Below are positions 5,655-63,351 of a stretch of 64,000 nucleotides of DNA, in pieces. The stretch's first letter is position 1, and every line of letters starts with the position of its first letter. A program made the translations under genes and the position numbers. The notes beneath the pieces are model-generated. The model saw only the letters and a list, made by a program, of their open reading frames with translations, did no database searches and had not been told where the DNA came from. Origin of the DNA: a virus. The stretch is taken from IMG/VR virus record IMGVR_UViG_3300032287_003808, positions 67,435 to 131,434 of that record; one strand, 5' to 3'.

Positions 5655-5674
5655 GTGGGTCCTTGCGGACCCAC
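5655..5674 (-). terminator. hairpin after the last gene of the 5.7-10.5 kb block
   Basis: GTGGGTCC-N4-GGACCCAC 8-bp stem; weak U-tract. Confidence 0.5.
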
Positions 5675-5693
5675 CTTTATTAGAAGCGCTAAA

Positions 5694-5918
5694 CTACCAT
5701 CTCGTCACTTGGTCATCATTGTTTTTGGTTGTCATGTATTCCGCATACGGGTCTTCACAGTTCTCAATCGCTCTAACTATGTCACTTTTCAAATACGCAG
5801 CGTCCATCACGCTTAACTTACTTGTGTCGTAACCCATCGCCTTCAAGAAATCCATTACTGCGATGAACTGATCCATTACGTTCACATCTACACCATCAAG
5901 TTTTTTCAAATTTTTCAT
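5694..5918 (-). CDS. early hypothetical protein
   Basis: Own promoter motif, CGGTTATG start. Confidence 0.75.
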   Translation of the reverse strand: MKNLKKLDGVDVNVMDQFIAVMDFLKAMGYDTSKLSVMDAAYLKSDIVRAIENCEDPYAEYMTTKNNDDQVTRW

Positions 5919-5960
5919 AACCGCTATTTTTAATTATACTTTAATATACGTAATTCAATT

Positions 5961-6173
5961 TCAGAGTCTGTATCCCAACATATAATTGCCAATGTAACTA
6001 TCTAAACTTGTTCCGCGGCAAATGTCATACCCTGTTTCCGCCTTGTCGTTATCACGTTTCGCATACTCTTCTAACGCGGTGTACACTTCAGGTATCAATA
6101 TTTTCTTCCACCCTGACAACTGTTCTGCTTGGATTCTCATTCCGTCCACTACTGTAAAAACTTTTCTTTCCAT
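5961..6173 (-). CDS. early hypothetical protein
   Basis: Own promoter, AAAGAAACGGTTATG start. Confidence 0.75.
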   Translation of the reverse strand: MERKVFTVVDGMRIQAEQLSGWKKILIPEVYTALEEYAKRDNDKAETGYDICRGTSLDSYIGNYMLGYRL

Positions 6174-6213
6174 AACCGTTTCTTTAAATATACTTTAATA
6201 TACGTAACTGTCT

Positions 6214-6348
6214 TTAGTCATTAGTGTCCTTAGCTAACTCTTCAAACTGTAATATCAACAACGGAACCAATCCGATTAAACCCCAATCGTTCCCGAACGC
6301 CAATAATATCGTTCCAAATACTCCTACTGTAATACCAAATGTTCTCAT
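6214..6348 (-). CDS. 44-aa membrane peptide (not in ORF track)
   Basis: MRTFGITVGVFGTILLAFGNDWGLIGLVPLLILQFEELAKDTND; own promoter. Confidence 0.7.
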   Translation of the reverse strand: MRTFGITVGVFGTILLAFGNDWGLIGLVPLLILQFEELAKDTND

Positions 6349-6395
6349 AACCGTTTCTTTAAATATACTGAAATATACGTAATGTCATTTGCGAC

Positions 6396-6701
6396 TTATA
6401 CTCCCGTCTTTGCTCTCAATATGTCATCTAACATGTCGATTAGGTCTCCTAGGTAGCCATTACGAGCTAAGTCATCTAAATCGTATGTCTGGTCTTCATA
6501 ATACCCACCACAACAATCACATCCGAAATCAATATACTCACCTAACACTACTGTTCCGTTTTCGAAATCGAAACCTCGCAACTCCAATTTACCCACTTTG
6601 TCAAGTCGATCACACCATAACTCCATTTCGAAATCGATGTCTTTAATTTTTCCGAATTGTGTAAACGTGTTACACGCGTCCATAAACTCTCTTGCTGTCA
6701 T
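6396..6701 (-). CDS. acidic early hypothetical protein
   Basis: Likely start MTAREF (AGGTTATG); GCDCCGG motif. Confidence 0.75.
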   Translation of the reverse strand: MTAREFMDACNTFTQFGKIKDIDFEMELWCDRLDKVGKLELRGFDFENGTVVLGEYIDFGCDCCGGYYEDQTYDLDDLARNGYLGDLIDMLDDILRAKTGV

Positions 6702-6706
6702 AACCT

Positions 6707-6784
6707 TCAATTTAGAATATACAATAAAGCAAATTTAACACCTACTACTCCCACTGCCAATAATAAACATACTAAAACTTCCAT
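6707..6784 (-). CDS. 25-aa hydrophobic peptide
   Basis: MEVLVCLLLAVGVVGVKFALLYILN; own promoter. Confidence 0.6.
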   Translation of the reverse strand: MEVLVCLLLAVGVVGVKFALLYILN

Positions 6785-6834
6785 AACCGTTATTTTTAAT
6801 TATACTTTAATATACGTAACAATGTTTGGTGTTA

Positions 6835-6993
6835 TTACTCCTTTATAACGTGTTTAATATACTCTCCCTCATCGAACCAATAAAACGCTAGTCGTCCGTC
6901 TTCAAGTCGTAACGTTATCACCGCTTGGTCTAAATTGCCATCCATACTCAAAATGTCGGCTCCGTGTTTCTGTAAAAATGTTTGCGTTCTCAT
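6835..6993 (-). CDS. 52-aa hypothetical protein
   Basis: MRTQTFLQKHGADILSMDG...KHVIKE. Confidence 0.6.
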   Translation of the reverse strand: MRTQTFLQKHGADILSMDGNLDQAVITLRLEDGRLAFYWFDEGEYIKHVIKE

Positions 6994-7048
6994 GTACCCC
7001 GAAAGCCCGATTACTCGGGCTCACAAGGTGTATATTTAAGATAACCGG

Positions 7049-7471
7049 TTATGAAGCGGTGTCGTTAATTACTACTTTTGGTCTTCCAAGTGGCATCACA
7101 CCACCATTAGCGGCTTTCTTGGCTTCCATTTCCGCCAATCGTTTCTGGCGCGCACTTTCCCCATTCACCGGGCGACCTTTTTTCAACTCACCATTTGCTC
7201 GTTTCGTCTCTAACTCCACTAACCGCATTTGGCGGGCACTGTCTGCCTTAATTGGTCGACCCTTTTTCAACTCACCATTCGCTCGTTTCTCAGCCAACTC
7301 GGCAATTCGTATTTGGCGGGCACTATCTGCCTTAACTGGTCGGCCTCGTTTCCCTGTTGTCTCTGGCTTGGCCATGTTTGCCAACATCTCTTCCAATACT
7401 ACGCTCTTCATTGTATGAGCTCCTTTAATTCCTGCTGCAATCGCTGTTGCTACTAATTCATTTCTTTTCAT
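7049..7471 (-). CDS. AT-hook (GRP) repeat DNA-binding protein, Ala-rich copy
   Basis: Three ~29-aa repeats KGRPxxxxSARQxRxxELxxKRANGEL plus a fourth GRP. Confidence 0.8.
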   Translation of the reverse strand: MKRNELVATAIAAGIKGAHTMKSVVLEEMLANMAKPETTGKRGRPVKADSARQIRIAELAEKRANGELKKGRPIKADSARQMRLVELETKRANGELKKGRPVNGESARQKRLAEMEAKKAANGGVMPLGRPKVVINDTAS

Positions 7472-7521
7472 AACTGTTATTTTTAATTATACTTTAATAT
7501 ACGTAACTGATTTAACTTAAC

Positions 7522-7662
7522 TTACTCCCCACTTAAACTGATGTAATTAAATTGGTTGTAATCCATCTCACCAATAATCATAGATGCTACTACCGTTACT
7601 AATCCTACTACCGCAATGGTTCCCATTGCTCCTAATACTAATGTTTCAATCCAATTTTTCAT
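7522..7662 (-). CDS. 46-aa membrane peptide
   Basis: MKNWIETLVLGAMGTIAVVGLVTVVASMII...; own promoter. Confidence 0.65.
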   Translation of the reverse strand: MKNWIETLVLGAMGTIAVVGLVTVVASMIIGEMDYNQFNYISLSGE

Positions 7663-7703
7663 AACCTTTTTTTATTTAATATACGTAACCAATCTAACTA
7701 AAC

Positions 7704-7772
7704 TTACTCCTCATTATATTCAGAGTACCATTCAATCTTTTCCCAGCTAATTAGTCCATCAAAATTCTCCAT
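7704..7772 (-). CDS. 22-aa acidic peptide
   Basis: MENFDGLISWEKIEWYSEYNEE; own promoter and AGGTTATG start. Confidence 0.55.
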   Translation of the reverse strand: MENFDGLISWEKIEWYSEYNEE

Positions 7773-7822
7773 AACCTTTATCTTAAAATATAATTAAATA
7801 TAAGTAATTTACTTTAATTCAT

Positions 7823-8014
7823 TTACTCCTTACTTAACCATTTTAACCCATTAACATCTTTAACTTCAATAATCTCATACTCATTTTTATCCCTATCACA
7901 CAATTCTTCAAACTCAATCTCACCCACCTCATAACCTAAACTCTCAATCAATTCTTCCTTACTATTACTAATAAAACTAAAATTTAAACAATAATCAATC
8001 ACTAAATACTTCAT
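7823..8014 (-). CDS. acidic early protein encoded by a cytosine-free gene
   Basis: No G on the plus strand from 7805 to 8045; protein has no A, P, T, Q or H; own promoter. Confidence 0.8.
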   Translation of the reverse strand: MKYLVIDYCLNFSFISNSKEELIESLGYEVGEIEFEELCDRDKNEYEIIEVKDVNGLKWLSKE

Positions 8015-8050
8015 AACTTTATCTTTTTAATTTATATAAATATAAGTAAC

Positions 8051-8075
8051 AAAAATGGGGGCTCTTACACCCCCA
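8051..8075 (-). terminator. intrinsic terminator embedded in the next promoter
   Basis: TGGGGG-N8-CCCCCA followed by TTTTT. Confidence 0.7.
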
Positions 8076-8079
8076 CTAA

Positions 8080-8301
8080 TTAAATATAATCATATTCATC
8101 ATTCCAATTACACTCAATAAATCCTATCTCACTCAAATCATCTATATAATTATAACAAAAATCTAAATAATCTTTATAAATTATATCCTCACCCACCTTA
8201 AACTCATTTAAAAAGTTATTTAACATCTCATCATCCTCATAAGATTCAATCACTTCTTTAACATAGTCATAATCTCTAGTCTTAAATTTAATTTTTCCCA
8301 T
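8080..8301 (-). CDS. acidic early protein, nearly C-free gene
   Basis: Only 4 C in 222 coding nt; 20 D/E in 73 aa. Confidence 0.8.
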   Translation of the reverse strand: MGKIKFKTRDYDYVKEVIESYEDDEMLNNFLNEFKVGEDIIYKDYLDFCYNYIDDLSEIGFIECNWNDEYDYI

Positions 8302-8360
8302 AATCTTTATTTTTTAATTTATATAAATATAAGTAATAAAATTAAATAATTATGTTCCTG

Positions 8361-8549
8361 TTAATTAAATGTTACCATCCTGTGAGCTAATAAAGCCAAC
8401 TCCGTGTCATTAAAGGGCTCTTCTCCCTCGTTAATATATTTTCTCAATTGGTAGGCCACTATGGCCTTTATATCCTGGCCTGATATCTCCCCTTCATTAG
8501 CCCTCTTCATGGCCAGTTTGAACCTGTTTATTACTTTAATCTCATTCAT
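8361..8549 (-). CDS. early hypothetical protein
   Basis: Own promoter. Confidence 0.75.
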   Translation of the reverse strand: MNEIKVINRFKLAMKRANEGEISGQDIKAIVAYQLRKYINEGEEPFNDTELALLAHRMVTFN

Positions 8550-8595
8550 AACCTTTATCTTTTTAATTTATCTTAATATACGTAATTTGTTGGGG

Positions 8596-8826
8596 CTATT
8601 TTATTCCTAGCCCCTCATATTTCAATAAACTATTTGCAATATACCTATGTACGGCATTTATATTTTTGAATTGGGACACATTATCAACAATTATTTTCTT
8701 GTCTGTGTCCTTAATATTTTTAGTTTCAATAAAACTTAGAATTACTCCTTTTGCCTCATTCAAATCTCTAATCTGGAATACTTGTGGTGCCACCTCTTCC
8801 AATACGCTTTTAATTTTGATCTTCAT
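8596..8826 (-). CDS. early hypothetical protein
   Basis: Own promoter. Confidence 0.75.
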   Translation of the reverse strand: MKIKIKSVLEEVAPQVFQIRDLNEAKGVILSFIETKNIKDTDKKIIVDNVSQFKNINAVHRYIANSLLKYEGLGIK

Positions 8827-8885
8827 AACTTTATCTTTTTAATTTATTTAAATATATGTAACTAAATTAGGGGGTCTTATTCCCC

Positions 8886-9146
8886 CTAAATCCAATCCAT
8901 ACTATATCCCATTTCAACTAACTTATCCATAATATACTCTGGTAATTCAAATACACCATCATAATCTCTTAGGTAAGTTGTGTCTCCTTCCTTATCAAAC
9001 CATAGGCCTCCTTCGGCATAAACCCTTTCACCCCCTGTTTCAACATCATACAATTCAAACCAACCGTAGCCTTCATTCTTGATTCCTACTGTCACTTCTA
9101 ATTCTGTTCCTCGTGGTGATACCACCTTAAATGTTTCTTCTTTCAT
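8886..9146 (-). CDS. acidic early hypothetical protein
   Basis: Own promoter; YAEGGLWF..LRDYDGVFELP. Confidence 0.75.
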   Translation of the reverse strand: MKEETFKVVSPRGTELEVTVGIKNEGYGWFELYDVETGGERVYAEGGLWFDKEGDTTYLRDYDGVFELPEYIMDKLVEMGYSMDWI

Positions 9147-9195
9147 AACCTTTTTTTCTTTTAATATACGTAACTATTTCTAATGATTTTACTCC

Positions 9196-9342
9196 CTAAA
9201 AATCACTTTTCATTAGTTCCTCTATCTTTTCTTTTAATTCTCCTAGTAATTCAGATGTTAGCTTTTCCTCATCAGCTAGTCCATTGTTCATTACATTAAC
9301 TAATTCCTGTAGTACTAGTTGCTTTTCTTCCTTTAAACTCAT
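9196..9342 (-). CDS. 48-aa helical protein
   Basis: MSLKEEKQLVLQELVNVM...; own promoter. Confidence 0.65.
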   Translation of the reverse strand: MSLKEEKQLVLQELVNVMNNGLADEEKLTSELLGELKEKIEELMKSDF

Positions 9343-9372
9343 ATCTCTTTTTTTCTTAAATATATGTAATTA

Positions 9373-9398
9373 AAATAGGGGCTTTTACACCCCTATTA
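9373..9398 (-). terminator. terminator embedded in promoter
   Basis: AATAGGGG-N8-CCCCTATT followed by TT. Confidence 0.65.
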
Positions 9399-9406
9399 TT
9401 TTATTT

Positions 9407-9727
9407 TTATTCTTCACTTTTAATCATTTTTGGTCTCCCTAACTTAAAAGTTCCATTTAATTTTCTTTCTTCTATTTCCTTCAACCTCATCTGTCTTTTA
9501 CTCTCTCCATTAACAGGTCTTCCTTTCTTTAACTCCCCATTACTTCTCTTCTCTTCTAATTCTTTTAGCCTTACCTGTCTAACACTATCTTCTTTAATGG
9601 GTCTTCCTTTTTTAATCTCCCCATTCTTTCTTCTTTCTTCTAATTCCTTTAGTCTTAATTGTCTTACACTTTCAGGATTAACTGGGCGTCCCAATTGTTT
9701 TACTTCAATAATCTCTACTTTTTTCAT
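9407..9727 (-). CDS. AT-hook repeat protein, Ala-free/C-poor paralog of 7049..7471
   Basis: Same 29-aa GRP repeat architecture. Confidence 0.8.
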   Translation of the reverse strand: MKKVEIIEVKQLGRPVNPESVRQLRLKELEERRKNGEIKKGRPIKEDSVRQVRLKELEEKRSNGELKKGRPVNGESKRQMRLKEIEERKLNGTFKLGRPKMIKSEE

Positions 9728-9773
9728 AACACTTATCTTTTTAATTTACTTAAATATACGTAACAAATTTAAC

Positions 9774-9968
9774 TTAAAACATTCCCCCGTCAATAATAAA
9801 TACTTTAGTCTTTTTATTATCATCTTCACTCAGGTATACTTTTTCAGTTCCTATGTACTCAACATCATTATAGTAAATATAATTTGTTGGGTCGGTTCCT
9901 TGAACAATCACTTCTAGATCTTTGTCCTTAACCTTTTCTAATTTTTTAATTAACTCCTTTACTGTCAT
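9774..9968 (-). CDS. early hypothetical protein
   Basis: MTVKELIKKL-type start; own promoter. Confidence 0.75.
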   Translation of the reverse strand: MTVKELIKKLEKVKDKDLEVIVQGTDPTNYIYYNDVEYIGTEKVYLSEDDNKKTKVFIIDGGMF

Positions 9969-10021
9969 AACCTTTTATATTTTTAATTATGTTGAAATAT
10001 ACGTAACAATTTCTAATAATT

Positions 10022-10333
10022 TTATTCCTCACTATCTATCATTTCTTTTAATTCTAGGAAAAAATCATAGGCATCTGTTTTTCCTCCTATATGGAACTCA
10101 TCCAATTCATTCATGGTGTATTCCTCATCATAAGTCTTCCAATCATAAACTGTAAATATCTCTCCATTATACTCTACAATCCATTCCTTCTGAACCTTAT
10201 CATCTCCTGATGCTTCTGGGTGTGTTGGTTCCCCTAGTACCCTAACTAGGTCCTGGTAGGTACAGTTAATGTATCCTTTAAATCCAGACCCTGATGTCTT
10301 CCCTTTTAATTCATTTTCTTTTAATACTTTCAT
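10022..10333 (-). CDS. early hypothetical protein
   Basis: Own promoter; LGEP..DDKVQKEW..TVYDWK..FHIGG. Confidence 0.75.
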   Translation of the reverse strand: MKVLKENELKGKTSGSGFKGYINCTYQDLVRVLGEPTHPEASGDDKVQKEWIVEYNGEIFTVYDWKTYDEEYTMNELDEFHIGGKTDAYDFFLELKEMIDSEE

Positions 10334-10364
10334 AACCTTTTTTCTTTTAATATACGTAACTCTT

Positions 10365-10517
10365 TTAATCTAAGCTTATCCCCTTATGTTTATCTTTACG
10401 GGTGTATTTCTTTTTTGATTCCATCGCCCTCGCAACAAATCTTCCATCAAAGTACCCCTGTTGTTTCTGTGATTCCCTTGTGGCTCCTATGTTCATTTTA
10501 ATTGTCTCCTTTTTCAT
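10365..10517 (-). CDS. 50-aa basic peptide, possibly ArfA-like
   Basis: ...FDGRFVARAMESKKKYTRKDKHKG; own promoter. Confidence 0.55.
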   Translation of the reverse strand: MKKETIKMNIGATRESQKQQGYFDGRFVARAMESKKKYTRKDKHKGISLD

Positions 10518-10881
10518 TTCTTTTATTTTTAATAAATATACGAAACAATTTTAATAATTTTTAGTCCCTTTTAATCATTCTCCCCCCTGTTCCCCCGTGG
10601 GGGTGTGGGGGTTGTATATACTTTCGTTCTCTACCCAAAGGGTCGTGTTCGCACCATGTAAGGGTCCGATACGACATTCCTCTATTCCACACTTATCATC
10701 TCCTGTTTTCCACCTACTCACAATCACTTCTAATCTCATTACCCCCTTATATTCCTGTTTGTCACCCATTGGTAAATATCCTTAATAAATTAAACGCGTA
10801 TAAAACACTCAAATAACACTTATGATACATTTTATATTTTAATGGTGTTCTCATTTATATCACATTTATTTCATTTCTTAT

Positions 10882-11064
10882 TTAATTATCTCCAAGGTAT
10901 GTTTCATAAATTTCTAGTAATTCCTCTCCATCTACAATAAACGGATCTGTTTCCTCAAGAAATCCAAACTTACCATTGTCGGTCACTTCAAATTTATCCA
11001 CTTCAAGTTGGAGAATATCAAATCCATTCTCAACTAATTCCTTAAATGCTGTTTTTACTTCCAT
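10882..11064 (-). CDS. acidic hypothetical protein
   Basis: Own promoter. Confidence 0.7.
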   Translation of the reverse strand: MEVKTAFKELVENGFDILQLEVDKFEVTDNGKFGFLEETDPFIVDGEELLEIYETYLGDN

Positions 11065-11119
11065 AACTTTTTATTTTAATATACGTAAGTGATTTTTATT
11101 ATTTTACTCCTCTATAATC

Positions 11120-11194
11120 TCATTCCACCCAATAACCTCTAATCACTAACATAACAATCAATACACTAATGAATACTCCTATAAACAATTCCAT
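11120..11194 (-). CDS. 24-aa hydrophobic peptide
   Basis: MELFIGVFISVLIVMLVIRGYWVE; only 1 C in the coding strand. Confidence 0.5.
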   Translation of the reverse strand: MELFIGVFISVLIVMLVIRGYWVE

Positions 11195-11195
11195 A

Positions 11196-11351
11196 TCAAA
11201 ACACTATAAAATCCTCTAAATACTCACCTGTTCCTTTTCCGTTCTTAGTTATTTCATAACTCGGATCCATTCCACTATACATTACACGATCAATTAACTC
11301 TTGTAATGAATTAAATTCTTCCTTAAAGTAACTACAATCTAAACTATACAT
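11196..11351 (-). CDS. 51-aa hypothetical protein
   Basis: MYSLDCSYFKEEFNSLQELIDRVMYSGMDPSYEI...; own promoter. Confidence 0.7.
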   Translation of the reverse strand: MYSLDCSYFKEEFNSLQELIDRVMYSGMDPSYEITKNGKGTGEYLEDFIVF

Positions 11352-11395
11352 AACTTTCTTATTTTTTATTTATACTGAAATATACGTTCTCTCTT

Positions 11396-11596
11396 TTATA
11401 TCTCTTCTTCCTTTATGGTTTGTCTTGTAAATTCTATTGTTACAGAACTCTCATAAATCGTTTCTGTAGTTGTCTCACATGAATCTGCTTCCCGGTTCAT
11501 GATCATTTCCATTGCTGTTTCTTCATCCTTAGCAATTATTTCATAAGTGTAAGTGACCATAGCAGGTACTTGTTCCTCAATTATATATCTTTTCAT
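11396..11596 (-). CDS. acidic hypothetical protein
   Basis: ORF with A-rich leader. Confidence 0.7.
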   Translation of the reverse strand: MKRYIIEEQVPAMVTYTYEIIAKDEETAMEMIMNREADSCETTTETIYESSVTIEFTRQTIKEEEI

Positions 11597-11608
11597 AATT
11601 TCTTTCTT

Positions 11609-11776
11609 TTAATCCTCAATTTTCACTCCTAATAGTTGACACATATGTTCTAAATCAATTTGGATGTCTCCTTTATTCCGTAACACTACTTTTAATGAAT
11701 TAACCATTTGTACTACATTAGGATGATTTGAAGCCATTTCTGCTTTCTTAATGAACTTACTTAATTTTATTTTCAT
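11609..11776 (-). CDS. 55-aa hypothetical protein
   Basis: MKIKLSKFIKKAEMASNHP...; own promoter. Confidence 0.65.
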   Translation of the reverse strand: MKIKLSKFIKKAEMASNHPNVVQMVNSLKVVLRNKGDIQIDLEHMCQLLGVKIED

Positions 11777-11921
11777 AACTTTTTTATTTGAATATATGAA
11801 ACTAAATTTATATTTTTTATTCCCCTCTTTTTATGGTACTAATTATTTTTTAAAGTCATTACTTATCTCTCCTATGCTTATTACAACTAGCAATACTAAT
11901 ATAACACCCACTACTCCCATG

Positions 11922-12134
11922 TTAATCTTGTATTAGTTCTATTTCATCCTCAGTGTGCCAATTTGCGGTATTTTCTGTTCCAACGTGTGTTCGTCCTTCT
12001 ACAAGTACTCTATAATCTAGTCTATCATTTTCATCTAAATCATATTCAACAATGGTTCCTACATCATCTACTTTATTGATTGATCCGTTTTCTGATGATA
12101 CAATTTTTACTTTATCTCCTACTTTATATTTCAT
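11922..12134 (-). CDS. SH3-like small protein
   Basis: MKYKVGDKVKIV...VGTIV. Confidence 0.7.
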   Translation of the reverse strand: MKYKVGDKVKIVSSENGSINKVDDVGTIVEYDLDENDRLDYRVLVEGRTHVGTENTANWHTEDEIELIQD

Positions 12135-20923: not shown

Positions 20924-21469
20924 TTAAATAAAATCTTCCTCTACTAATTTATCTTTAAGAAGATCTCTTAATTTAGCTTTTGCTTTGAATAGATTTGATT
21001 TAGAAGTCCCTTCATTTATACCTAATATTTCAGCTACTTCTTTATGTGGGTGTTCTTCTAACACATATAATTTAAAAACTTTCCTATATGAATCAGGTAG
21101 TTTCTCTATTGTTAATAGTATTGTATCTAAAAAATCCTCACTATACTTTTTTTCCTCAGATTTAAGATGAGTAGTATTAACATCAACAGTATTGTTTTTG
21201 AATTTATCTTTTCTTATTTCATCAATAGCTGTATTAATTACAATTCTACGCATCCACCCCTCTATTGAGTTGTTATATGAGTATTGAGATATTCTGTTAA
21301 ATATTTTAATAAAACTGAGTTGTACTATGTCTTGTGCTTGGTGTTCGTTTTGAGTGTATTTAAGGCTCACATGCAACATTTTACTGTAGAACATATTGAA
21401 CAGTGTTGTTTGACTCGCTTGTTTGTTTTGAACGCATCCATCAATGATATGTTTAAGATTATTTTCCAT
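20924..21469 (-). CDS. ECF-type RNA polymerase sigma factor
   Basis: AQDIVQLSFIKIF, GWMRRIVINTAID, LPDSYRKVF, EVAEILGINEGTSKSNLFKAK; likely start MENNLK. Confidence 0.9.
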   Translation of the reverse strand: MENNLKHIIDGCVQNKQASQTTLFNMFYSKMLHVSLKYTQNEHQAQDIVQLSFIKIFNRISQYSYNNSIEGWMRRIVINTAIDEIRKDKFKNNTVDVNTTHLKSEEKKYSEDFLDTILLTIEKLPDSYRKVFKLYVLEEHPHKEVAEILGINEGTSKSNLFKAKAKLRDLLKDKLVEEDFI

Positions 21470-21665
21470 CAATATACTCATCTGTAAGGCATACATTACA
21501 TTTTTGCTTTGGGGCAAAATTATAAGTGTATATTCCTAATAATAATAGACCCCAAGTATAAAACCAATATTTAGGGTGGAATAATGCTTTGAAGAATAAA
21601 CTCACAGCCATTATAACAAAACTAATCATCAACACTCCACTAATAACATTCCAAAACCCTTTCAT
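21459..21665 (-). CDS. small membrane protein (possible anti-sigma partner)
   Basis: Two TM segments, CxxC, translationally coupled to the ECF sigma. Confidence 0.6.
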   Translation of the reverse strand: MKGFWNVISGVLMISFVIMAVSLFFKALFHPKYWFYTWGLLLLGIYTYNFAPKQKCNVCLTDEYIDGK

Positions 21666-30589: not shown

Positions 30590-30674
30590 TGGAGAGTTAT
30601 TTAATGTCATTTTTTCGTATCTTTCAACGTTCACGATCTCTCTTAACTGACAAACGCGAGTCGGTATTAAGGTG

Positions 30675-30748
30675 TGGACCAGCCTGGGTTCGAACCAGGG
30701 ACTTCAACATTATGAGTGTTGCACTCTAACCAACTGAGTTACAGGTCC
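30675..30748 (-). tRNA. tRNA-CAT, probably Ile2 (lysidine) rather than Met
   Basis: Cloverleaf, anticodon loop CTCATAA, C4-G69/C5-G68 TilS-type pairs. Confidence 0.85.
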
Positions 30749-31340: not shown

Positions 31341-31399
31341 ATTGATAAATCAATATGTCAGCCGGGAGATTTGTTTTTACACATTTGTTTTAATTTTAG

Positions 31400-31483
31400 T
31401 ACTCGGGGTGGGACTCGAACCCACACAACCAGCTGGTCAACAGATCTTAAGTCTGTCGTGTCTACCAATTTCACCACCCAAGC
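31400..31483 (-). tRNA. tRNA-Leu(TAA)
   Basis: GCTTGGG acceptor, ACAGA-CTTAAGA-TCTGT, long variable arm, GGTTCGAGTCC. Confidence 0.9.
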
Positions 31484-33314: not shown

Positions 33315-34442
33315 TTAGTTACTCAAAGTAGCACTTATTTTTGAATGAGATTGGTAGTTTTCCATTATAAAATCTTCAGGAAGCCAATACTCAGGACAAA
33401 ATTGTCCTTCAAACATATCAAAATCAGGCATTTTTAATTTAGGTAATGGATATGGTTCTCTACTAATCTGTTCTTTAGCTGCTTCTATATGGTCTGAAAG
33501 ATATAAGTGGCAATCACCCAAATTACCAATCAATTCATCCGGAACCATATTAACTTCTTTTGCAATTATTTCTAATAACAATCCGTAAGATGCAATATTG
33601 AATGGTAAACCTAAGAATGTATCCACTGAACGTTGATTCCACATTAAAGAGATTGCTCTGGTTGGAATTTTTATACCTTGAGTTGATTCAATACCTTCAT
33701 ATTGTTCTTCAATGTATTTTTCCCATTCTTGTCCATAAATGATTCTATCAGTTTCAATATCATTTATATAATTAGTTTTTTCCAATTGCCACTCTTTTTC
33801 TTCTAAACTCAACTCTCTTGTATAAACTTGAAATCCATAATGACAAGGTGGAAGTGTCATTTGATCTAATTCTCCAACATTCCAAGCATTAACCATTAAA
33901 CGTCTTGAGTCTGGATTTGTTTTAAGGTCTTTGATTAGGTTTGCGATTTGGTCTGTTACTTTAACTGCAACTTTACAATTTTCTTCTGTTACATCGTATG
34001 GTATGAATTGTTTCCATTCTCTCCATTGTTTACCATATATTGGACCTAATTCACCAAACTGATCAGCATGCCATTTATCGAGACTAATCGACTTAATCAA
34101 CTCTTCCTGTGTAAACTTTTTAGGTACATCAAACGGTGTGGTTTTGCTCATATGTTCATACCATTTTTCATATGCTTTATAGGCATCGCCATCCCAAATG
34201 TGACAATCATTATCAACAAGGAATTTAATGTTTGTATCACCACGCAGGAACCACAACAACTCTGTTGCTATAACACGGAATGGCATCTTCTTTGTTGTAA
34301 GTAAAGGAAACCCTTCTGACATCTTGTGTCGGATCTGTCTGCCAAATACTGAAAGTACTTCTCCATTTCTGGTTTGTTTTGTTACTCCGTTGTCTAAAAT
34401 ATCTTGGAGTAGGTCTGTGTATTGTTTATCTAGGTTGTTCAT
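33315..34442 (-). CDS. thyA: thymidylate synthase
   Basis: FPLLTTKK, ELLWFL, LGPIYGKQW, DSRR, LPPCH, QRSVDTFLGLPFN, DCHLY. Confidence 0.97.
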   Translation of the reverse strand: MNNLDKQYTDLLQDILDNGVTKQTRNGEVLSVFGRQIRHKMSEGFPLLTTKKMPFRVIATELLWFLRGDTNIKFLVDNDCHIWDGDAYKAYEKWYEHMSKTTPFDVPKKFTQEELIKSISLDKWHADQFGELGPIYGKQWREWKQFIPYDVTEENCKVAVKVTDQIANLIKDLKTNPDSRRLMVNAWNVGELDQMTLPPCHYGFQVYTRELSLEEKEWQLEKTNYINDIETDRIIYGQEWEKYIEEQYEGIESTQGIKIPTRAISLMWNQRSVDTFLGLPFNIASYGLLLEIIAKEVNMVPDELIGNLGDCHLYLSDHIEAAKEQISREPYPLPKLKMPDFDMFEGQFCPEYWLPEDFIMENYQSHSKISATLSN

Positions 34443-40240: not shown

Positions 40241-41038
40241 TTATAAAATAAATTTTTGGTTTGTTTCAGGGTGTGAGTGAATATAACTCCCCCATTTATA
40301 TTTAGCATATTGGTGACAACTTGTTTCTTCTTGTTTAGATTGATTAATTTGTTCCGGAGATTTATTACTTAGAGCAACAAAATGATAGAAGTGGCAATTC
40401 CAAGTTCTAAGCATTTTTAAACCGCTTAATTGGCATTTCATAAAGAACTCCCAATCTGTAACAAAACCCGCCTGTGATGGATAATCTTCAGCAAAACCAC
40501 CAACCTTTAAATAATCATACTTGTTTATAAGAATAGGAAATGTTGATCCGTTTTCTTCTATTTTATCTCCAGAAGCGTAATGATAATCAAACAACCAAAA
40601 CTTTTCTAAATCAAATGTATTTGGGTCACGTCCTAAATCTTCAATCATAAATTGTTTAAACATTGAAGGAAAAGGTTCAACTTGATTAGGTGTTAGAACA
40701 AATCCATTTGGATATTGTTTAGTACATTCACTCCAATCTTCTTCTAATGTAGTATCCCAAAAACGAGGAAACACATTATCATCATTTACAATTAATACTT
40801 TATCATATTGAGCATTGTATACTCCTAAGTTTAATGCTTTGCAAGCACCTACATTTTGCTCTAAATTTAAAACATCAATATGTTTAGAGTATTTTTTAAG
40901 TACTTCTTCATTTAAGTCATAATGACCATCTACAACTACAATGATTTGATTTTCATTCTGTTGTCCTTCAATAGCTGATTTTAAGCATAAATCTAAAGCA
41001 TGAGTTGTTTTGTAAGTGGGGATAATTACTGTTATCAT
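40241..41038 (-). CDS. glycosyltransferase family 2
   Basis: ITVIIPTY, VVVDG, NDD. Confidence 0.9.
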   Translation of the reverse strand: MITVIIPTYKTTHALDLCLKSAIEGQQNENQIIVVVDGHYDLNEEVLKKYSKHIDVLNLEQNVGACKALNLGVYNAQYDKVLIVNDDNVFPRFWDTTLEEDWSECTKQYPNGFVLTPNQVEPFPSMFKQFMIEDLGRDPNTFDLEKFWLFDYHYASGDKIEENGSTFPILINKYDYLKVGGFAEDYPSQAGFVTDWEFFMKCQLSGLKMLRTWNCHFYHFVALSNKSPEQINQSKQEETSCHQYAKYKWGSYIHSHPETNQKFIL

Positions 41039-41727
41039 ATAGTTTTATTGTTTATACATTCCCAATCAATTGTAGGTGACATTAATTGTTCCATACAATG
41101 AGTTGATAATCCTGGTATTGGTGTCATTACGAATCTGCCTCTATGTTCATTAAGGTGCATAAATGTGTTATGGTCTCCTACTGTTGTTGACCAAACGTCA
41201 TAGTCTTTATCAAATAAATCCCTTGTTATAATGAAACTGCCACAAGTTGAACCTATAGTTCTCCAATGGTGAGTACTAGTGGTATAAACTCTTGAAATCA
41301 TATTATTAACATGCTCCGGGAAGTACTTGTCATTATGGTCATACAACGAGATATAATGTAAGTCTGCGTATGTAGAGAATAAATTCATAGTTTCATCTAC
41401 CCAATTATCAGTATGTAAATAATCGTTCTCTAAAAAATAAATTAACTCATTAGGTTCCATAGGTTGCTCTTTAATATGTTCTAAAAGAGCTCTATAAGAT
41501 AATAAACTTGATTTATAATCAGTAGGAAATAAAGTAAATTTATCTTGATAGTTTTTAGTAAAGTCTTGATTTATATCTCCATCTAAAGCTAAAGTTAGAT
41601 CAATATTATCATACCCTTCTATAGTTTTAAGAAGATTTTTAAAACAGTTTTCATAACTAAACCATGACGGTCTCCATCTCCCAGGACTGTTAGTTACAGC
41701 GTGGCGATAATAGATATGGATTTTCAT
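41035..41727 (-). CDS. GT-A-like glycosyltransferase
   Basis: IYFLENDYLH, SLYDH.DKY. Confidence 0.7.
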   Translation of the reverse strand: MKIHIYYRHAVTNSPGRWRPSWFSYENCFKNLLKTIEGYDNIDLTLALDGDINQDFTKNYQDKFTLFPTDYKSSLLSYRALLEHIKEQPMEPNELIYFLENDYLHTDNWVDETMNLFSTYADLHYISLYDHNDKYFPEHVNNMISRVYTTSTHHWRTIGSTCGSFIITRDLFDKDYDVWSTTVGDHNTFMHLNEHRGRFVMTPIPGLSTHCMEQLMSPTIDWECINNKTI

Positions 41728-41728
41728 A

Positions 41729-42895
41729 TTAGTGTTTTTTACAAATTAACATTATACTTGAACATAAATCAGGGTATTGATGACCTAGTTGAAAACAACC
41801 ATCTAAATATTCTTTTGAAATAATATCAGTATTGAGCAATTGGTCCCATTGAAAATTAGCTAATGCTTTAAAGAATATTCCAGAGCGATTAATAACATTT
41901 AACCCTCCGTTTCTAGCATCTCTTTCTAAAGTATCTAAAGTATAAGTAATCCTATGGCCATGTTCTGCTTCAGCTGGAGTAATTGCTGCATTATGAGTAA
42001 TTAGTCCCATTTTAACTGCTATTTGTCTTGAAGGAGCATTAGCATTAGGGCATACTAAAAACAATTTCCCATCTTCAGACAACCATTCATTTTTAATTCT
42101 AGATAACAATCCTACAGGATCATCAATATGCTCTAAAACATGAGTTAAGATAATATTATCATATTTTTTAGGAAGTTGAACATTTTCAAATAATGAATTA
42201 AAATACTCAATATCATGATTTAAATTTTGTTTAGCTGTCTTAATCGCTTCATCAGATGCTTCTACACATGTAATATCATTAAAATAAGGAATAAGACGTT
42301 TTGTAAAATCACCTTTAAAACTTCCTAATTCAAGACAATTACCTTCAACAAAATGATGTTTAAATGATTCTATCATATAGTGATGTATTACATCAAAATC
42401 AAAGTTGTAAGCGTACTTATGGTCTGGGGTGTCTTTTAATTCTTTATTGTAGTTTCTGTTCATGTTGTTCCATTTTAATATTAAAACATTATCTTTAGTT
42501 TCATGTAATATAAAATCATTTTTTTCATAGAAATTTATAGCTGGTTTGTTATTTTTAAAAACTTCTAAAGTTATGTTATTGTATTGCAAATCAGTACATC
42601 TAGACTTACAAGTATCTAATAATATTTGAGCTACACCTTGATTATGATACTCAGGTACTACACTGATATTTGTTATGTATAAATTTTTCTGGTCAGAATT
42701 GTTATAGAAGGCTATTAAACCTATCAAAATATCATCTACTATTAATTCTATTCGTCTAGAATTTTCATATAATTTTTTAGAGTATCCCTTAATATCAACA
42801 TACGATGATAACTCAGGAGTAAATGATTTAGAACAAGATATTAAATGATTATATATCTGTTCTTGAGTGCTGTTGTTTATAGTTATTTTATTCAT
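41729..42895 (-). CDS. GNAT acetyltransferase / class I SAM methyltransferase fusion
   Basis: V.PEYHNQGVA..AINFYEK; LELGSFKG, HVLEHIDDP. Confidence 0.85.
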   Translation of the reverse strand: MNKITINNSTQEQIYNHLISCSKSFTPELSSYVDIKGYSKKLYENSRRIELIVDDILIGLIAFYNNSDQKNLYITNISVVPEYHNQGVAQILLDTCKSRCTDLQYNNITLEVFKNNKPAINFYEKNDFILHETKDNVLILKWNNMNRNYNKELKDTPDHKYAYNFDFDVIHHYMIESFKHHFVEGNCLELGSFKGDFTKRLIPYFNDITCVEASDEAIKTAKQNLNHDIEYFNSLFENVQLPKKYDNIILTHVLEHIDDPVGLLSRIKNEWLSEDGKLFLVCPNANAPSRQIAVKMGLITHNAAITPAEAEHGHRITYTLDTLERDARNGGLNVINRSGIFFKALANFQWDQLLNTDIISKEYLDGCFQLGHQYPDLCSSIMLICKKH

Positions 42896-43853
42896 TTTCT
42901 AATATTGCTAATCCAAATCCATATTTACCAAAATCATTTCCATTATAAGTCATATAATGTTGCCCATCAACTTCAAAGACGTGTGGATAATGTTGCATAG
43001 TGCTGTCCCATCCCGTTTCAGAGTATCTAATCCCTGCTTCTTTATCTTTACGTTCCCAATTAATTAAGTCAATTGATGTTGCGTACCCTATTTTATACCC
43101 TCTTCCAGGTGTAGTTCTAAAATCTAAGCCTTCTCTATAAACAAAATACATATGATATAATCCATCTTTATAAAATACATCTGGTCCTGCTTGACATTCG
43201 TTTTCATCTAATATATCAGGGATAATATTCACATTTAGGCGAACCCATTTGATCCCATCTTTAGAAATAGCCATCCTATTCTTATAGATTATTTCAGGTT
43301 TGCCATTATGATTAATCCATTTGGTCCCAGCTAAATAAAACATATACCAGGTATTGTTAAATTTTCTAATTTTAGGACCACTTAGAACAAATGGCTCAAA
43401 TGCATCTGCTGATAATATAGGGCCGGGTCCTATTCTGCTGAATGTTTCTCCATTATCTTCACTATATGCTAAACCAATAGAAGTATTAAATGGTACTGAT
43501 TGGCAACGAGTCCACCCAGCGTAGTAAAATAATATTTTATCATTGAGTCTAATATTACTAGAAGGATAAACAGCAAACTCATCAAACGTACCTAGTTCCC
43601 CTAAAGGCATTATAGGTTTATCTGAGACTCTAATTATTTTAGTAAGGTCGTTTTTGTCTAAATCTAAAAATGTTGTATAAGATTTTGCAAACCCATCCTC
43701 ATCATTTTCAGGTCTACAAGAAAAATATACTCTAACAACATCATCTAAAACTAAAGTATGAGTGCATTGTGAATGAGTTTTCATCCATGGTCTGTCAATA
43801 CCGTCATCCCATACTGTTGGGTCAAAAATATGTCCTAATTTATTCCATTTCAT
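42888..43853 (-). CDS. five-bladed beta-propeller glycosidase-like protein (GH32/43/130-like)
   Basis: IGLAYSEDNG, AISKDGIKW, GYATSIDLINW repeats. Confidence 0.75.
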   Translation of the reverse strand: MKWNKLGHIFDPTVWDDGIDRPWMKTHSQCTHTLVLDDVVRVYFSCRPENDEDGFAKSYTTFLDLDKNDLTKIIRVSDKPIMPLGELGTFDEFAVYPSSNIRLNDKILFYYAGWTRCQSVPFNTSIGLAYSEDNGETFSRIGPGPILSADAFEPFVLSGPKIRKFNNTWYMFYLAGTKWINHNGKPEIIYKNRMAISKDGIKWVRLNVNIIPDILDENECQAGPDVFYKDGLYHMYFVYREGLDFRTTPGRGYKIGYATSIDLINWERKDKEAGIRYSETGWDSTMQHYPHVFEVDGQHYMTYNGNDFGKYGFGLAILENE

Positions 43854-45186: not shown

Positions 45187-45562
45187 AACTATAAAAATTT
45201 TGCTTTTTAAAACCTAATTTCTCAAATACTTTACTACTTGCTATATTTTGAGGAAATACAAATGCTGTTAAAGCATCATGTTGTTCCATAAATTCAGAAA
45301 CCATAAATGTGCCTATACCTTTTCCTTTAAAATTAGGGTCAACACAATAAGTAATTTCATTTTCTTTAATAACTCCTATATAACCTACAGGTTCTTCACC
45401 TAATAAACATATTTTATATCTATTAGAATTTTTACTCATGTATTCTGCCTGTTGTTCAGGAGTTATTTTAATTTGAGTAAAAAACCAGTTTTCATTTTCA
45501 GGATGCGTCCTTAACAAACGAACAAACTCCCAATATTTAGAAGTACAATCTACTAATATCAT
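45170..45562 (-). CDS. GNAT acetyltransferase (PseH-like)
   Basis: FKGKGIG, NIASSKVFEKLGF. Confidence 0.85.
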   Translation of the reverse strand: MILVDCTSKYWEFVRLLRTHPENENWFFTQIKITPEQQAEYMSKNSNRYKICLLGEEPVGYIGVIKENEITYCVDPNFKGKGIGTFMVSEFMEQHDALTAFVFPQNIASSKVFEKLGFKKQNFYSYEKCL

Positions 45563-56740: not shown

Positions 56741-58681
<1,941 letters not shown>

Positions 58682-60621: not shown

Positions 60622-63351
60622 CTAGCCAAAGCTAAAAAACTTTGATATATGTTCATTTAAAGTTAATTCCCAACCTATGTCATTATATAATGTCTCTAAT
60701 TTGTTTCGCATAATACTATCAAATAACCCCTCTCTATCAATATATTTTTCTACAATTTCAATAATTTCAGGTGAATCATTATATCCGTTTAATCCAACAA
60801 CTGTAAGTTGATATGGGTTTGGTTTTAAAATTGCTACATACATTTTATCTCCAATTGTAAACTCTGTATATTTTTTAGTTAAACCTTTAAAACGTAATAT
60901 ATCGTTTGTTGCAATTGCTGCTTTTGTGTTTACAGGACATTTTAATTTGAGTTTCGAGAATATTTCTCCAGCCATTGGTTTACGCTCAATATATTCGCCT
61001 ATTTTCTTTAAACCAGTTGGTTTGAGTAATTTGATCCAATCTATTGTATTTACCATTTTCTTGAACTCCATTACGTCTTTGTCTATTTCAGTTTTAGATT
61101 TTCCAAATAGGATATTTTTGATCAAATCTTCTCCAAAGTTTCTAAACAAATCGGGGAAATTTGATTTCATGATATCCAAACCTTTCATCTCTAGCTCTTC
61201 AATTTCAACACCTTCTTTGTTTACAATATACATTGCGTAACGACGTTTACCAGACCAATATGCTTTCTCAGCGATCACTTCTTGCTTTAATTCAAAATAA
61301 TGTTTTCCATTCATATTGAATAAATCTTTAGTAATACTGTTTAAGTTATTATTTGCTACAGTTTGTAATTCACTTGTTAAACTTAATAACCGTTTAATTT
61401 TTTCTTTACGGTCATTATAATCTAAATCGGGATTACGATGTTTAAGTAGATCTGTTAATTCCATATATAAGGAATCTGTGTCTGAGGCGATTACAAATTG
61501 TCTTGGATCTATATCTAATTGATCTGAGATGTATTGGTTTACGTATGTAATAGATTCTTTGGTTAATCGTTGCCCACTGTTTGTAATAGCGGATGAACAA
61601 ATTTTAAATCCATCTGTAAAACGCCATGAGTTGATAGCGTATGTACCATATAATGCGTTTTGTAAGATCTTAAATGCCATTTGGTACAAATCATACAACT
61701 TATAATTTGCCCAATCTTCTTGTTTACCTGCTGTTTTCTTTAATGCTCGATAATGTTCTCGTTTATCAAACCAATCCTCTAATACCTCACAAGCAATACT
61801 TTTAGTGTCGGTTCTAAAAAATGCTCCACTAGCAGAAATTGACCATTCATTTTTTTCAATAAGTTTAATAAGTTGACCAACAGGTATTTCTGCATCTTTC
61901 AACTTATATGTTTTACGATTTAATTTTTGTATATGGATATTTTGTTCTGGGTCAAGTTTCTTAAGTTGTTCTAATGAGTTATATTGTTCGTAATTATTCT
62001 TTGTAACAATTCTACCCATTAGTGTTTCAATACCTAAATTAAGTGATTTAATAATTGAAGGATATAGTGAGGTAAAATCCAAGTCACTTACATCTGAGTA
62101 TAATCCGGGTATAGGATCTAGTAGGTATCCTCCAGCGTAACTATCTTTTTTCTTTATCGTTTTAGGATTACGTTGAATATATTTTCCAGCTGCTGTTTTA
62201 ACTATGACTTGATTATCTTCAAAACTATAAATGATACCTTCAATTGTTGGTGTACCTCGTTGATGTTGAACTGGGTCGCCTAATTCTAGTTCTCTAATTG
62301 AGGGGTTTGTTGTAGTTGGTTTATTTGGTGCTATAATACCTTTACGTTTTAGGTAAGTTAAAATAGCGCCTTCATTTAATGCTGTATTGTAGTAAATAGA
62401 TTCATATGGGGTATGGCATAAGTGGGAAATTAAGACTGTTAATTCAATAAACTTTAGTTTTTCCTCTAATGCCTCTATAATCTCAACATCTCGAATGTTA
62501 TAATCTATAAATTTGATTGGGTCTTCTCTAAATAAAGTATCTAGATTACCGTTGTATTCAATTTTACCTAACTTAGCATATTTAGTTCCAATATCACCTA
62601 GTTTATATGATGATTCCTCCTTCATGATGTACTTGCGAAGTAAATGCATAAAGTCGAGACAATTAACTAACCCGATACGAATCGGCGAATTTGGTTGAGA
62701 TGGTATTTCCTCAACTTTACCCACAGGAGACAAACGATTTACCTCGTCTCCTAAACGTTTTTTAATTCTGTAGTATAAGTATGGGATATCAAAGAAATCA
62801 CTGTTATATCCTACAACAATTGTAGGATCCATTTGTTCCCATTTGTTTAAGAATTTACGTAACAAAGTATTTTCATCAGGACAAGGTACAACTACTTTAC
62901 CATCTTGATTTATTTCCTCAATTTTACCTGCTTTATCTAAGATAAAACATATTTTTTCTTTAGTTGTAGTGTCAATTAAAGCAATGGCGGTTATTTCTGC
63001 GTTTGCCTCTTTAATAGTTTGTGGTGTAAGTGCTCCTAAAATCTCAATCTCAATATCTAAATAAATTGTATTATGATAAGAGGGCATTTCATCTGTTTGG
63101 TAATATAAATCCCTTAGAATTACTAATTCACGGTCAATATCTTTTTCGTATATTGTAGGATCTTTTTTATCTACTTTACCAGAAACAGGAGAACATCTTT
63201 CACCAAAGAGTGTCGTATGTTCTCCTTCGTTGTCTAGTTTATATAGAGTAGGCCAATATTGGAATTTATGTATTCCTTTTTTATCGTCCCTAAGATAGTA
63301 ATGCCATTGATCTTCTCCAGGTAATCTATTATAAAAAACTGATTGATACAT
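60622..63351 (-). CDS. polB: family B DNA polymerase
   Basis: DIE, YNSDFFD, YNIRD exonuclease motifs; DFTSLYPS, KILQNALYG, DTDS. Confidence 0.97.
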   Translation of the reverse strand: MYQSVFYNRLPGEDQWHYYLRDDKKGIHKFQYWPTLYKLDNEGEHTTLFGERCSPVSGKVDKKDPTIYEKDIDRELVILRDLYYQTDEMPSYHNTIYLDIEIEILGALTPQTIKEANAEITAIALIDTTTKEKICFILDKAGKIEEINQDGKVVVPCPDENTLLRKFLNKWEQMDPTIVVGYNSDFFDIPYLYYRIKKRLGDEVNRLSPVGKVEEIPSQPNSPIRIGLVNCLDFMHLLRKYIMKEESSYKLGDIGTKYAKLGKIEYNGNLDTLFREDPIKFIDYNIRDVEIIEALEEKLKFIELTVLISHLCHTPYESIYYNTALNEGAILTYLKRKGIIAPNKPTTTNPSIRELELGDPVQHQRGTPTIEGIIYSFEDNQVIVKTAAGKYIQRNPKTIKKKDSYAGGYLLDPIPGLYSDVSDLDFTSLYPSIIKSLNLGIETLMGRIVTKNNYEQYNSLEQLKKLDPEQNIHIQKLNRKTYKLKDAEIPVGQLIKLIEKNEWSISASGAFFRTDTKSIACEVLEDWFDKREHYRALKKTAGKQEDWANYKLYDLYQMAFKILQNALYGTYAINSWRFTDGFKICSSAITNSGQRLTKESITYVNQYISDQLDIDPRQFVIASDTDSLYMELTDLLKHRNPDLDYNDRKEKIKRLLSLTSELQTVANNNLNSITKDLFNMNGKHYFELKQEVIAEKAYWSGKRRYAMYIVNKEGVEIEELEMKGLDIMKSNFPDLFRNFGEDLIKNILFGKSKTEIDKDVMEFKKMVNTIDWIKLLKPTGLKKIGEYIERKPMAGEIFSKLKLKCPVNTKAAIATNDILRFKGLTKKYTEFTIGDKMYVAILKPNPYQLTVVGLNGYNDSPEIIEIVEKYIDREGLFDSIMRNKLETLYNDIGWELTLNEHISKFFSFG

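Follow-up and report, generated by a model that had tools for sequence, protein, structure and literature searches.

Can a gene be built without one of the four nucleotides and, if so, what keeps that nucleotide out? The question is raised by two neighbouring small genes, encoding proteins of 63 and 73 amino acids (aa), in the window studied here, that is, the last 64 kb of a 131,434-bp virus record (IMGVR_UViG_3300032287_003808) that is 82% complete. A first-pass annotation of the window had noticed that the plus strand carries no G from 7805 to 8045, and had proposed that the genes there are made immune to host defence by their base composition. We confirm a real exclusion of cytosine, conserved and gene-specific, which affects the coding strand in mobile small-gene cassettes of Flavobacterium-type myoviruses, and we infer that selection at the nucleotide level keeps certain of these mobile promoter cassettes C-free.

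The run itself is beyond doubt: the 241 nucleotides (nt) at 7805..8045 comprise 90 A, 57 C and 94 T on the plus strand, and no G. It is the longest G-free plus-strand run in both the window and the whole record, and the second longest in both (8062..8214, 153 nt) adjoins it. Third in length come runs of 79 nt (window) and 82 nt (whole record), and runs free of A, C or T reach 62 nt at most. As the two genes and those surrounding them all lie on the minus strand, it is the coding strand that lacks C and the template strand that lacks G. The open reading frame (ORF) for the 63-aa product (7823..8014) has 53 G and no C in its 192 nt, and everything that had been said of its sequence holds. The ORF for the 73-aa product (8080..8301) has four C in 222 nt, as had been counted, located in the codons ACT, GAC, TCT and AAC. 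With C fractions of 0.000 and 0.018, the two genes rank lowest among the 184 minus-strand ORFs of the record, for which the third-lowest value is 0.058 and the median 0.136. Using the codon frequencies of the surrounding early-type small genes, 63 C-free codons have a probability of about 10^-11.4; given the residues of the 63-aa protein, the C-free synonymous choices have a probability of about 10^-7.

An assembly artefact, which had been considered as a possible source of the pattern, is excluded, as contigs from other studies cover both genes with 15 differing places in 7805-8301. None of these 15 variant places in contigs of other runs creates or removes a plus-strand G; in the flanks of this interval, 7 of 25 listed contig differences involve G. 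Sequencing runs from 14 studies, with the labels lake water, freshwater or metagenome, contain near-identical DNA; no RNA run is among these. The C-freeness is a property of single gene units and not of the region, because the flanking ORFs have ordinary third-position C (0.11 in 7522..7662 and 0.17 in 8361..8549). Purines are not enriched in the two genes (A+G 0.63 and 0.60, compared with about 0.58-0.66 in neighbours), and C+T in C-free genes stays at about 0.37-0.41, compared with about 0.37-0.40 in most neighbours, while T rises to 0.37-0.42. This roughly constant C+T could suggest conversion of C to T. Both proteins are acidic, as had been pointed out (D+E 0.25 and 0.27), and a D+E content of 25-27% is common to many neighbouring proteins. 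Elsewhere in the window, the single plus-strand G reported for 11120..11194 was recovered; a 79-nt G-free plus-strand run at 11092..11170 lies in the spacer after ORF 11196..11351, whose C content is the third lowest (5.8%).

Both ORFs are taken to be protein-coding and under constraint at the protein level, because their families include distant members of normal C content (8-12%) and their folds are predicted with confidence. For the 73-aa protein, 37 database homologues with 66-95% identity were found, and its loci include 17 viral ones and at least 4 from metagenomes. Its distant homologues (40-57% identity, 89-420 aa) have the motifs IESYED, IDDMSE and NW in common, contain 5-12% C and, at conserved sites, use Pro, Ala, Gln and Thr. 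The 63-aa protein has five close and nine distant homologues, the latter with Thr, Ala, Pro, His or Gln where the window version has Glu, Ser, Cys or Asn. Across both families, the C-free versions have Glu, Lys, Cys, Ser or Asn at conserved sites in place of the Pro, Ala, Gln or Thr of distant members. The 73-aa protein is predicted to fold into four helices (predicted local distance difference test score, pLDDT, 85.4) and the 63-aa protein into a small alpha/beta domain of beta-beta-alpha-alpha-beta-beta topology (pLDDT 88.0). Comparison of 10 local proteins with Pfam and PHROGs gave nothing significant (best E=0.03 and E=0.005), none of 21 other low-C proteins matched a Pfam or PHROG family at E<=0.001, and the best E in a profile comparison with PDB sequences was 0.28. 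Neither predicted model matched a PDB structure by Foldseek at E<=0.001, and an Atlas search gave no usable lead on protein function. The suggestion that the proteins mimic DNA gained nothing from these comparisons, as no likeness to acidic mimics of the Ocr or ArdA type appeared in Foldseek/PDB, Pfam or PHROGs. In a collection of phage sequences, no match was found to the 73-aa protein or to the DNA of 7000-12000.

The decisive observation comes from related phages. Close homologues remain C-free although 19-28% of their nucleotides differ, and distant ones have normal C content, the former being the outcome that the first-pass annotation had proposed to look for; therefore, base composition itself appears to be under selection. 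This part of its interpretation stands, whereas the accompanying idea of a MazF-type hazard at ACA is disfavoured, as discussed below. The orthologues of the 73-aa protein (60-73% identity) hold 0-3 C (none in loci L010, L031 and L032, three in L009 and L033), and the remaining C's lie at different codons in different orthologues. In pairwise comparisons that include the window version, 27-59 of the 198-216 aligned nt differ, a range that leaves out the near-identical pair L010/L031 (1 difference). In seven loci, the 63-aa homologues contain 2-5 C, most of them within two Thr codons that are conserved. In the related loci, C-free ORFs alternate with ordinary ORFs. In locus L043, 11 ORFs have less than 3% C and the C-free runs reach 343, 267 and 234 nt, and L010 has C-free runs of 337 and 311 nt with one C between them.

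A survey of 13 loci placed 39 of 282 distinct ORFs below 3% C, and these 39 contain 121 C among their 8,946 nt. ORFs under 38-40 aa and those overlapping a longer ORF by more than 20-30 nt were dropped, and identical ORFs from duplicate loci were counted once. Most of the remaining C's (94 of 121) occupy codon positions 1-2, in codons for Thr (44), Gln (14), Ser (11), Ala (9), His (8) and Pro (8). Third-position C occurs in only 27 of 2,982 codons of the 39 ORFs (0.9%), compared with about 10% in neighbours, and the residues most enriched in the low-C proteins are Glu and Asp. C seems to persist solely where it is required by a codon for Thr, Gln or His, by the promoter or by the stem of a terminator. 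The same exclusion can be read from synonymous differences between orthologues. In 21 low-C pairs, A<->G differences were found at 98 of 434 sites (22.6%) and T<->C differences at 19 of 515 (3.7%), whereas 23 ordinary pairs from the same loci gave 184 of 753 (24.4%) and 205 of 648 (31.6%), respectively; 12 'mixed' pairs belong to neither class. Thus, synonymous T<->C differences are about eightfold rarer in the low-C pairs, and A<->G differences are as frequent as in ordinary genes.

Two processes, selection against C and a mutational bias away from it, could in principle empty a gene of C. We favour selection because the replacements are not products of C-to-T change, the borders are sharp, ordinary neighbours stand behind the same promoter-like motif and one orthologue looks relaxed. 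The replacements seen at conserved sites are Ala to Cys, Ser or Asn, Pro to Lys or Glu, Gln to Glu or Lys, and Thr to Glu. The relaxed orthologue, L038 5319..5525, still has a nearly C-free residue alphabet, with 1, 1 and 9 C at the three codon positions, compared with 0, 1 and 1 in its counterpart L043 5132..5377; it looks like a former C-free gene that regained nine third-position C's, and the local mutation supply therefore does produce C.

The C-free stretches belong to two self-contained gene units, each made up of a promoter-like repeat, its short leader and one small ORF, and one of them also has a terminator-like hairpin (Table 1). A promoter-like motif, TTACNTATAT, occurs in 24 exact copies in the record, all on the minus strand and all within 5953-37857 of the window, and its copies stand 20-30 nt upstream of the ATG of small ORFs. 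With a looser pattern, 55 minus-strand copies are found, 49 of them within 70-100 kb of the record. The 241-nt run is bounded by the sole C of two such copies, at 8046 and at 7804. The promoter and upstream terminator that had been assigned to the 63-aa gene are both supported as predictions, by the motif copy at 8049 and a hairpin at 8077..8054; one such hairpin was found where shuffled sequences give 0.2. A scan of 7400-8700 gave no hairpin 3' of the 63-aa gene and, with a consensus search, no sigma-70-type site at the motif copies. The 46-aa membrane-type ORF 7522..7662, next in line, has ordinary C (9.2%; third positions 11%). In a 465-nt contig of run X2, position 7794 is followed directly by 8037; the 242 nt between them are missing, and a 13-nt repeat marks the joint. 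The 63-aa unit therefore behaves as a gain/loss cassette, as this contig lacks exactly that unit.

Table 1. Coordinates of the C-free units and associated features in the window
Feature	Position	Strand	Remark
Promoter-like repeat TTACTTATAT of the 73-aa gene, sole C at 8333	8327..8336	-	TTACNTATAT copy
73-aa acidic protein gene, 4 C in 222 nt	8080..8301	-	
C-free coding-strand stretch, 153 nt: 3' 60% of the 73-aa gene	8062..8214	-	
Terminator-like hairpin (G5/C5) with a T run after it, immediately ahead of the following promoter copy	8054..8077	-	9 pairs, 5 G-C
Promoter-like repeat TTACTTATAT of the 63-aa gene, sole C at 8046	8040..8049	-	
C-free coding-strand stretch, 241 nt: leader, ORF and 3' tail to the C of the next promoter	7805..8045	-	
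63-aa acidic protein gene, 0 C in 192 nt	7823..8014	-	
242-nt gain/loss unit: 63-aa gene and one promoter copy	7795..8036	.	Absent from one contig
Promoter-like repeat before the 46-aa membrane-type ORF 7522..7662, C at 7804	7798..7807	-	

Judging by the promoter array, the C-free units would be transcribed early. A sigma-like protein is encoded inside the promoter-array block (20924..21517, minus strand; Pfam Sigma70_r2, 43.6 bits) and may read the TTACNTATAT motif. The exclusion of C reaches into the motif itself, and C tends to be missing from the entire unit with its promoter. In a count that took in the 111 of 193 matches with CG, TG, CA or CT before TATAT, the promoter C was lost, with TG in place of CG, in 7 of 25 low-C cassettes and in 8 of 86 others (Fisher p=0.04). 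The loss of the promoter C hints at a signal at the level of DNA rather than of RNA alone. Other cassettes in the array bear compositional signatures of their own, as indicated by dinucleotide skews: on the coding strand of 5666-7500, the dinucleotides CT and TC reach about half of expectation (CT 12/25, 10/21 and 8/16), and on that of 5666-7000, CG is enriched (35/22 and 29/18). The block also contains paralogues at 7049..7471 and 9407..9727 (both minus strand) with repeated, AT-hook-like GRP(V/I)...S.RQ.R..EL units; the product of the former is rich in Ala, that of the latter has no Ala, and homologues in related loci contain 5-14% C.

The source of this DNA is an uncultured freshwater myovirus, whose C-free units lie within a promoter-rich hyperplastic block of small genes. 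Among the products of the record are a large terminase, a portal, a major head protein and two tail sheath proteins, together with a family B DNA polymerase, clamp loader, ligase, GroEL, thymidylate synthase, a sugar-biosynthesis cluster and the sigma-like protein. Its best match among 2,768 phage records is Flavobacterium phage immuto (TerL 59.7%, GroEL 59% and ThyA 53% identical), and because this is its nearest cultured relative, the host is probably a member of the Flavobacteriia. Immuto is of particular relevance here. According to the relevant passages of PMC10516641, all G in its DNA is replaced by fdPreQ1, and the phage withstood a broad range of enzymes whose sites contain G. We find that immuto encodes FolE, QueC/D/E/F, DpdA and the formyltransferase DpdN, and that it also has, within its small-gene block, a sole low-C gene, gp143 (118 aa; L046 18330..18686; record 68330..68686), with 5 C in 357 nt (1.4%) and a C-free run of 158 nt.

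All four related records that hold DpdA or the replication module have a DpdA homologue, namely immuto and the complete records G002, G005 and G006. By tblastn, the replication module and Que genes are present in immuto, G002 and G005, in which the cluster adjoins the module; for G006, the result concerns DpdA, and the DpdA match of G007 has one in-frame TAA. In G001 and G003, neither the G-modification cluster nor SSB, RecA, DnaB or NrdA was found, so that the missing cluster does not count against G modification in these phages. The Pfam TGT search misses immuto's own DpdA, and it carries no weight as a detector of DpdA. In the present record, no SSB, RecA, 5'-3' exonuclease, DnaB, NrdA/F or PolA was found.

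Which hazard, then, would be avoided by leaving out C? The explanation that we favour, tentatively and as somewhat less than an even prospect, is that the hazard lies in transcription itself, which must read template G and needs CTP, and that C-free units escape both. RNA polymerase would copy such a unit without reading a template G or inserting a C, and its expression would be shielded from anything that makes G:C steps risky. The risk could take two forms. One, which we consider possible but rather unlikely, is the phage's own 7-deazaguanine DNA: a G-free template would be the only unmodified template available to host polymerase on incoming DNA, since relatives replace every G. In vitro, bacterial RNA polymerases tolerate 7-deazapurine groups that are small. 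The other form, put forward in the first-pass annotation and here given a distinctly low probability, is a host attack on the CTP supply, through ddhCTP chain terminators or through CTP shortage; it fits a per-site hazard and the short single-gene messages. Prokaryotic viperins occur in Flavobacteriia. More generally, base composition may serve these phages as a device for expression or counter-defence, with swappable three-letter (A, G, U) early genes that would be transcribable despite modified guanine or an attack on CTP, a view that we rate somewhat short of probable.

Several observations weigh against explaining the pattern by a hazard of transcription. The CTP form does not account for the loss of C from promoters. 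For the modified-DNA form, G modification of this phage is suggested by its relatives, and no DpdA or Que gene was found in the record, which is 82% complete and from which the replication module is also absent; therefore, the absence of these genes neither supports nor refutes the link. Full replacement of G is not sufficient by itself, because the Campylobacter phage CP220 has no low-C gene although its genome is reported to be completely modified (relevant passages of PMC10516641). CP220 encodes a DpdA homologue that is 44% identical, yet its lowest ORF has 6.4% C, its longest C-free run is 78 nt and its longest G-free run is 111 nt. Relatives known to carry DpdA have one low-C ORF each, and the richest low-C arrays (11 in L043, 6 in L040 and 4 in G001) are on fragments that may or may not come from G-modifying phages. 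About 190 other genes, with 9-17% template G, must be transcribed from the same DNA, including neighbours behind the same motif. Finally, a gene-specific, transcription-linked C-to-T pressure would yield the same equilibrium pattern of few T<->C differences.

The finished message, rather than its synthesis, might instead be the target, if a host or phage factor cut, edited or modified RNA at C and C-less messages escaped. C is avoided at all codon positions and in leader and tail, as expected of a per-site hazard on the message. Avoidance at third positions also excludes explanations based on tRNA or amino-acid supply, which we therefore reject; NNU and NNC codons share tRNAs. Nevertheless, no context of C is specially avoided among the 121 remaining C's, of which ACA (37) and ACU (32) are the commonest. 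For the MazF-type hazard at ACA that had been put forward, the result is the reverse of the expected one, with 37 ACA seen and 25.7 expected in the 39 low-C genes, and cutters of ACA or ACU type are therefore unlikely. Moreover, promoter C's, which lie outside the message of the unit, are also lost more often (7 of 25 compared with 8 of 86). To our knowledge, no C-specific bacterial RNase or RNA editor is known as a phage defence, although attack at the level of RNA was not itself a subject of the literature searches. Taken together, we regard an attack on RNA as improbable.

A DNA-level counterpart is that C on the displaced non-template strand of heavily transcribed units is deaminated, by an enzyme or through long single-strand exposure, and that selection together with this mutation pressure has left C-free units proof against it, their sites being T already. 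The preserved pyrimidine content, with T in place of C, agrees with this proposal, as does the confinement of the effect to one strand and its extension into the promoter. However, the amino-acid replacements are not what C-to-T change would produce, Glu and Asp being the most enriched, and neighbouring units with the same motif keep normal third-position C. No paper on an anti-phage deaminase that edits phage DNA was found among the literature matches listed, and deamination-proofing seems decidedly improbable to us.

It had also been suggested that the units are freed of restriction sites, and here the reasoning can be read off the sequence: no palindrome that includes G or C fits on a strand lacking C, and the unit would stay uncut and transcribable whichever restriction enzymes a host has. 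That the whole unit tends to be C-free, promoter included, accords with this, and the low-C genes have 16 four-base G/C palindromes, compared with 28.5 when their C's are relocated at random (4 of 300 relocations gave as few). Under the same control, however, ordinary genes have a similar deficit (622 compared with 819), so that this comparison does not set the low-C genes apart. One uncut unit of 250 bp cannot save a genome that is cut elsewhere, and the device would be redundant if the phage were modified like immuto, whose enzyme resistance is described in the relevant passages of PMC10516641. Restriction avoidance cassette by cassette is thus, in our estimation, very improbable.

It is also conceivable that the pattern has no function, and that a neutral, gene-specific bias such as transcription-associated C-to-T change has acted on weakly constrained ORFan genes. 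A strong C-to-T equilibrium would also leave few T<->C differences, and the genes are accessory and can be lost. Such a bias would nonetheless have to be more than tenfold stronger than in adjacent units with the same promoter motif, and spontaneous deamination of single strands is too slow for this. Conservation of the proteins is evident from 28 invariant columns in 19 sequences, yet residues that require C are almost gone, and one orthologue regained normal third-position C. We therefore see little likelihood in a neutral origin.

Least tenable is an extreme avoidance of Rho, which loads on C-rich, G-poor RNA: such avoidance does drive a coding-strand purine bias in Bacillus subtilis, with an excess of C over G marking targets (relevant part of PMC13323073), but in the neighbours C (about 10%) is already well below G (20-29%), the purine content of the C-free genes does not exceed theirs, C gives way to T, and richness in T is a second feature favouring Rho according to the same part of that paper, and messages of 200-250 nt with their own promoters leave little room for it.

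Other candidates were set aside. The messages are not unusually unstructured, with folding energies of -10.1 and -15.4 kcal/100 nt that lie inside the range of 42 neighbours (-9.3 to -25.7). An archaeal virus, to which the TATA-like motif might point, is ruled out by the bacterial-type GroEL (670 bits), the sigma factor and the relationship to a Flavobacterium phage. Modification of C in the DNA was not favoured, as the thymidylate synthase keeps the Asn of PFNIAS, which we take to mark dUMP specificity, and no dCMP deaminase was found. No first-injected genome end could be assigned, as the terminal repeats of G005 (127 bp) and G002 (137 bp) look like those of circular assemblies. Several further features of the window, all on the minus strand, deserve mention. 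The thymidylate synthase (33315..34442, 375 aa) has an insertion of about 100 aa, with PFNIAS kept, and GroEL (56741..58387, 670 bits to the GroEL model) has GroES just upstream at about 58401-58679 (tblastn). The family B DNA polymerase (60622..63351), just beyond which the record ends, takes the place of a family A enzyme in immuto, a phage named in papers on polymerase swapping. A cluster at 40241-50820, also present in immuto, comprises glycosyltransferases, an aminotransferase of DegT type and a fused acetyltransferase-methyltransferase, and two tRNA genes were identified, tRNA-Met(CAU) at 30674..30748 and tRNA-Leu(UAA) at 31399..31483.

That diverged relatives keep genes without one nucleotide indicates that selection on nucleic acid can override protein sequence, to the point of removing five amino acids from folded proteins. 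It would point to a strong hazard or demand at G:C steps in the first minutes of infection, for which the cost of hypermodified phage DNA to host transcription and a cytidine-directed host defence are the candidate hazards. If base composition does serve as a device for expression or counter-defence, it would represent a new layer of phage-host conflict that resides in nucleotide usage and not in proteins, and it would provide a natural experiment in which folded proteins are built from 15 amino acids. In practice, the C-free pattern offers a simple annotation flag for accessory early genes in metagenomic phage contigs, and immuto, as a cultured phage with gp143, provides an experimental handle on C-free genes.

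The exclusion of C described here matches no described system that we found, and literature searches returned, among the matches listed, no published natural, conserved and protein-coding gene free of cytosine. Parallels exist for its separate aspects. C-less and G-less cassettes are used in the laboratory to stall RNA polymerase by leaving out one nucleoside triphosphate; a C-less cassette, like the present units, can be transcribed to its end without CTP, but these templates are man-made. ACA-less messages resist MazF, and there, too, a nuclease target is removed through the choice of codons and residues, whereas here a whole nucleotide is removed and ACA persists. Immuto, with its DpdA-type fully modified DNA, belongs to the same phage lineage and has one gene with 1.4% C; in contrast, its modification genes are not in the present record, and the relevant passages of PMC10516641 nowhere link modification to gene composition. 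The Rho-driven purine bias is likewise strand-specific and tied to transcription, with C below G on the coding strand, but as described in the relevant part of PMC13323073 it is genome-wide, mild and set between purines and pyrimidines, whereas here single genes lose C and T rises. The closest structural parallel may be sought in the PeSL cassettes of the T4-type phages RB49 and phi1, the promoter-early stem-loop units of Arbiol et al. 2010 (PMC2839356). The motif of the window phage, unlike theirs, fails the sigma-70 consensus, and the relevant part of that paper mentions neither nucleotide exclusion nor base composition. In both systems, however, a repeated intergenic promoter motif, in some cases with a polyG/polyC stem-loop, precedes small ORFans in a hyperplastic block, and recombination between the repeats gains or loses units, just as the 63-aa unit is absent from one contig here.

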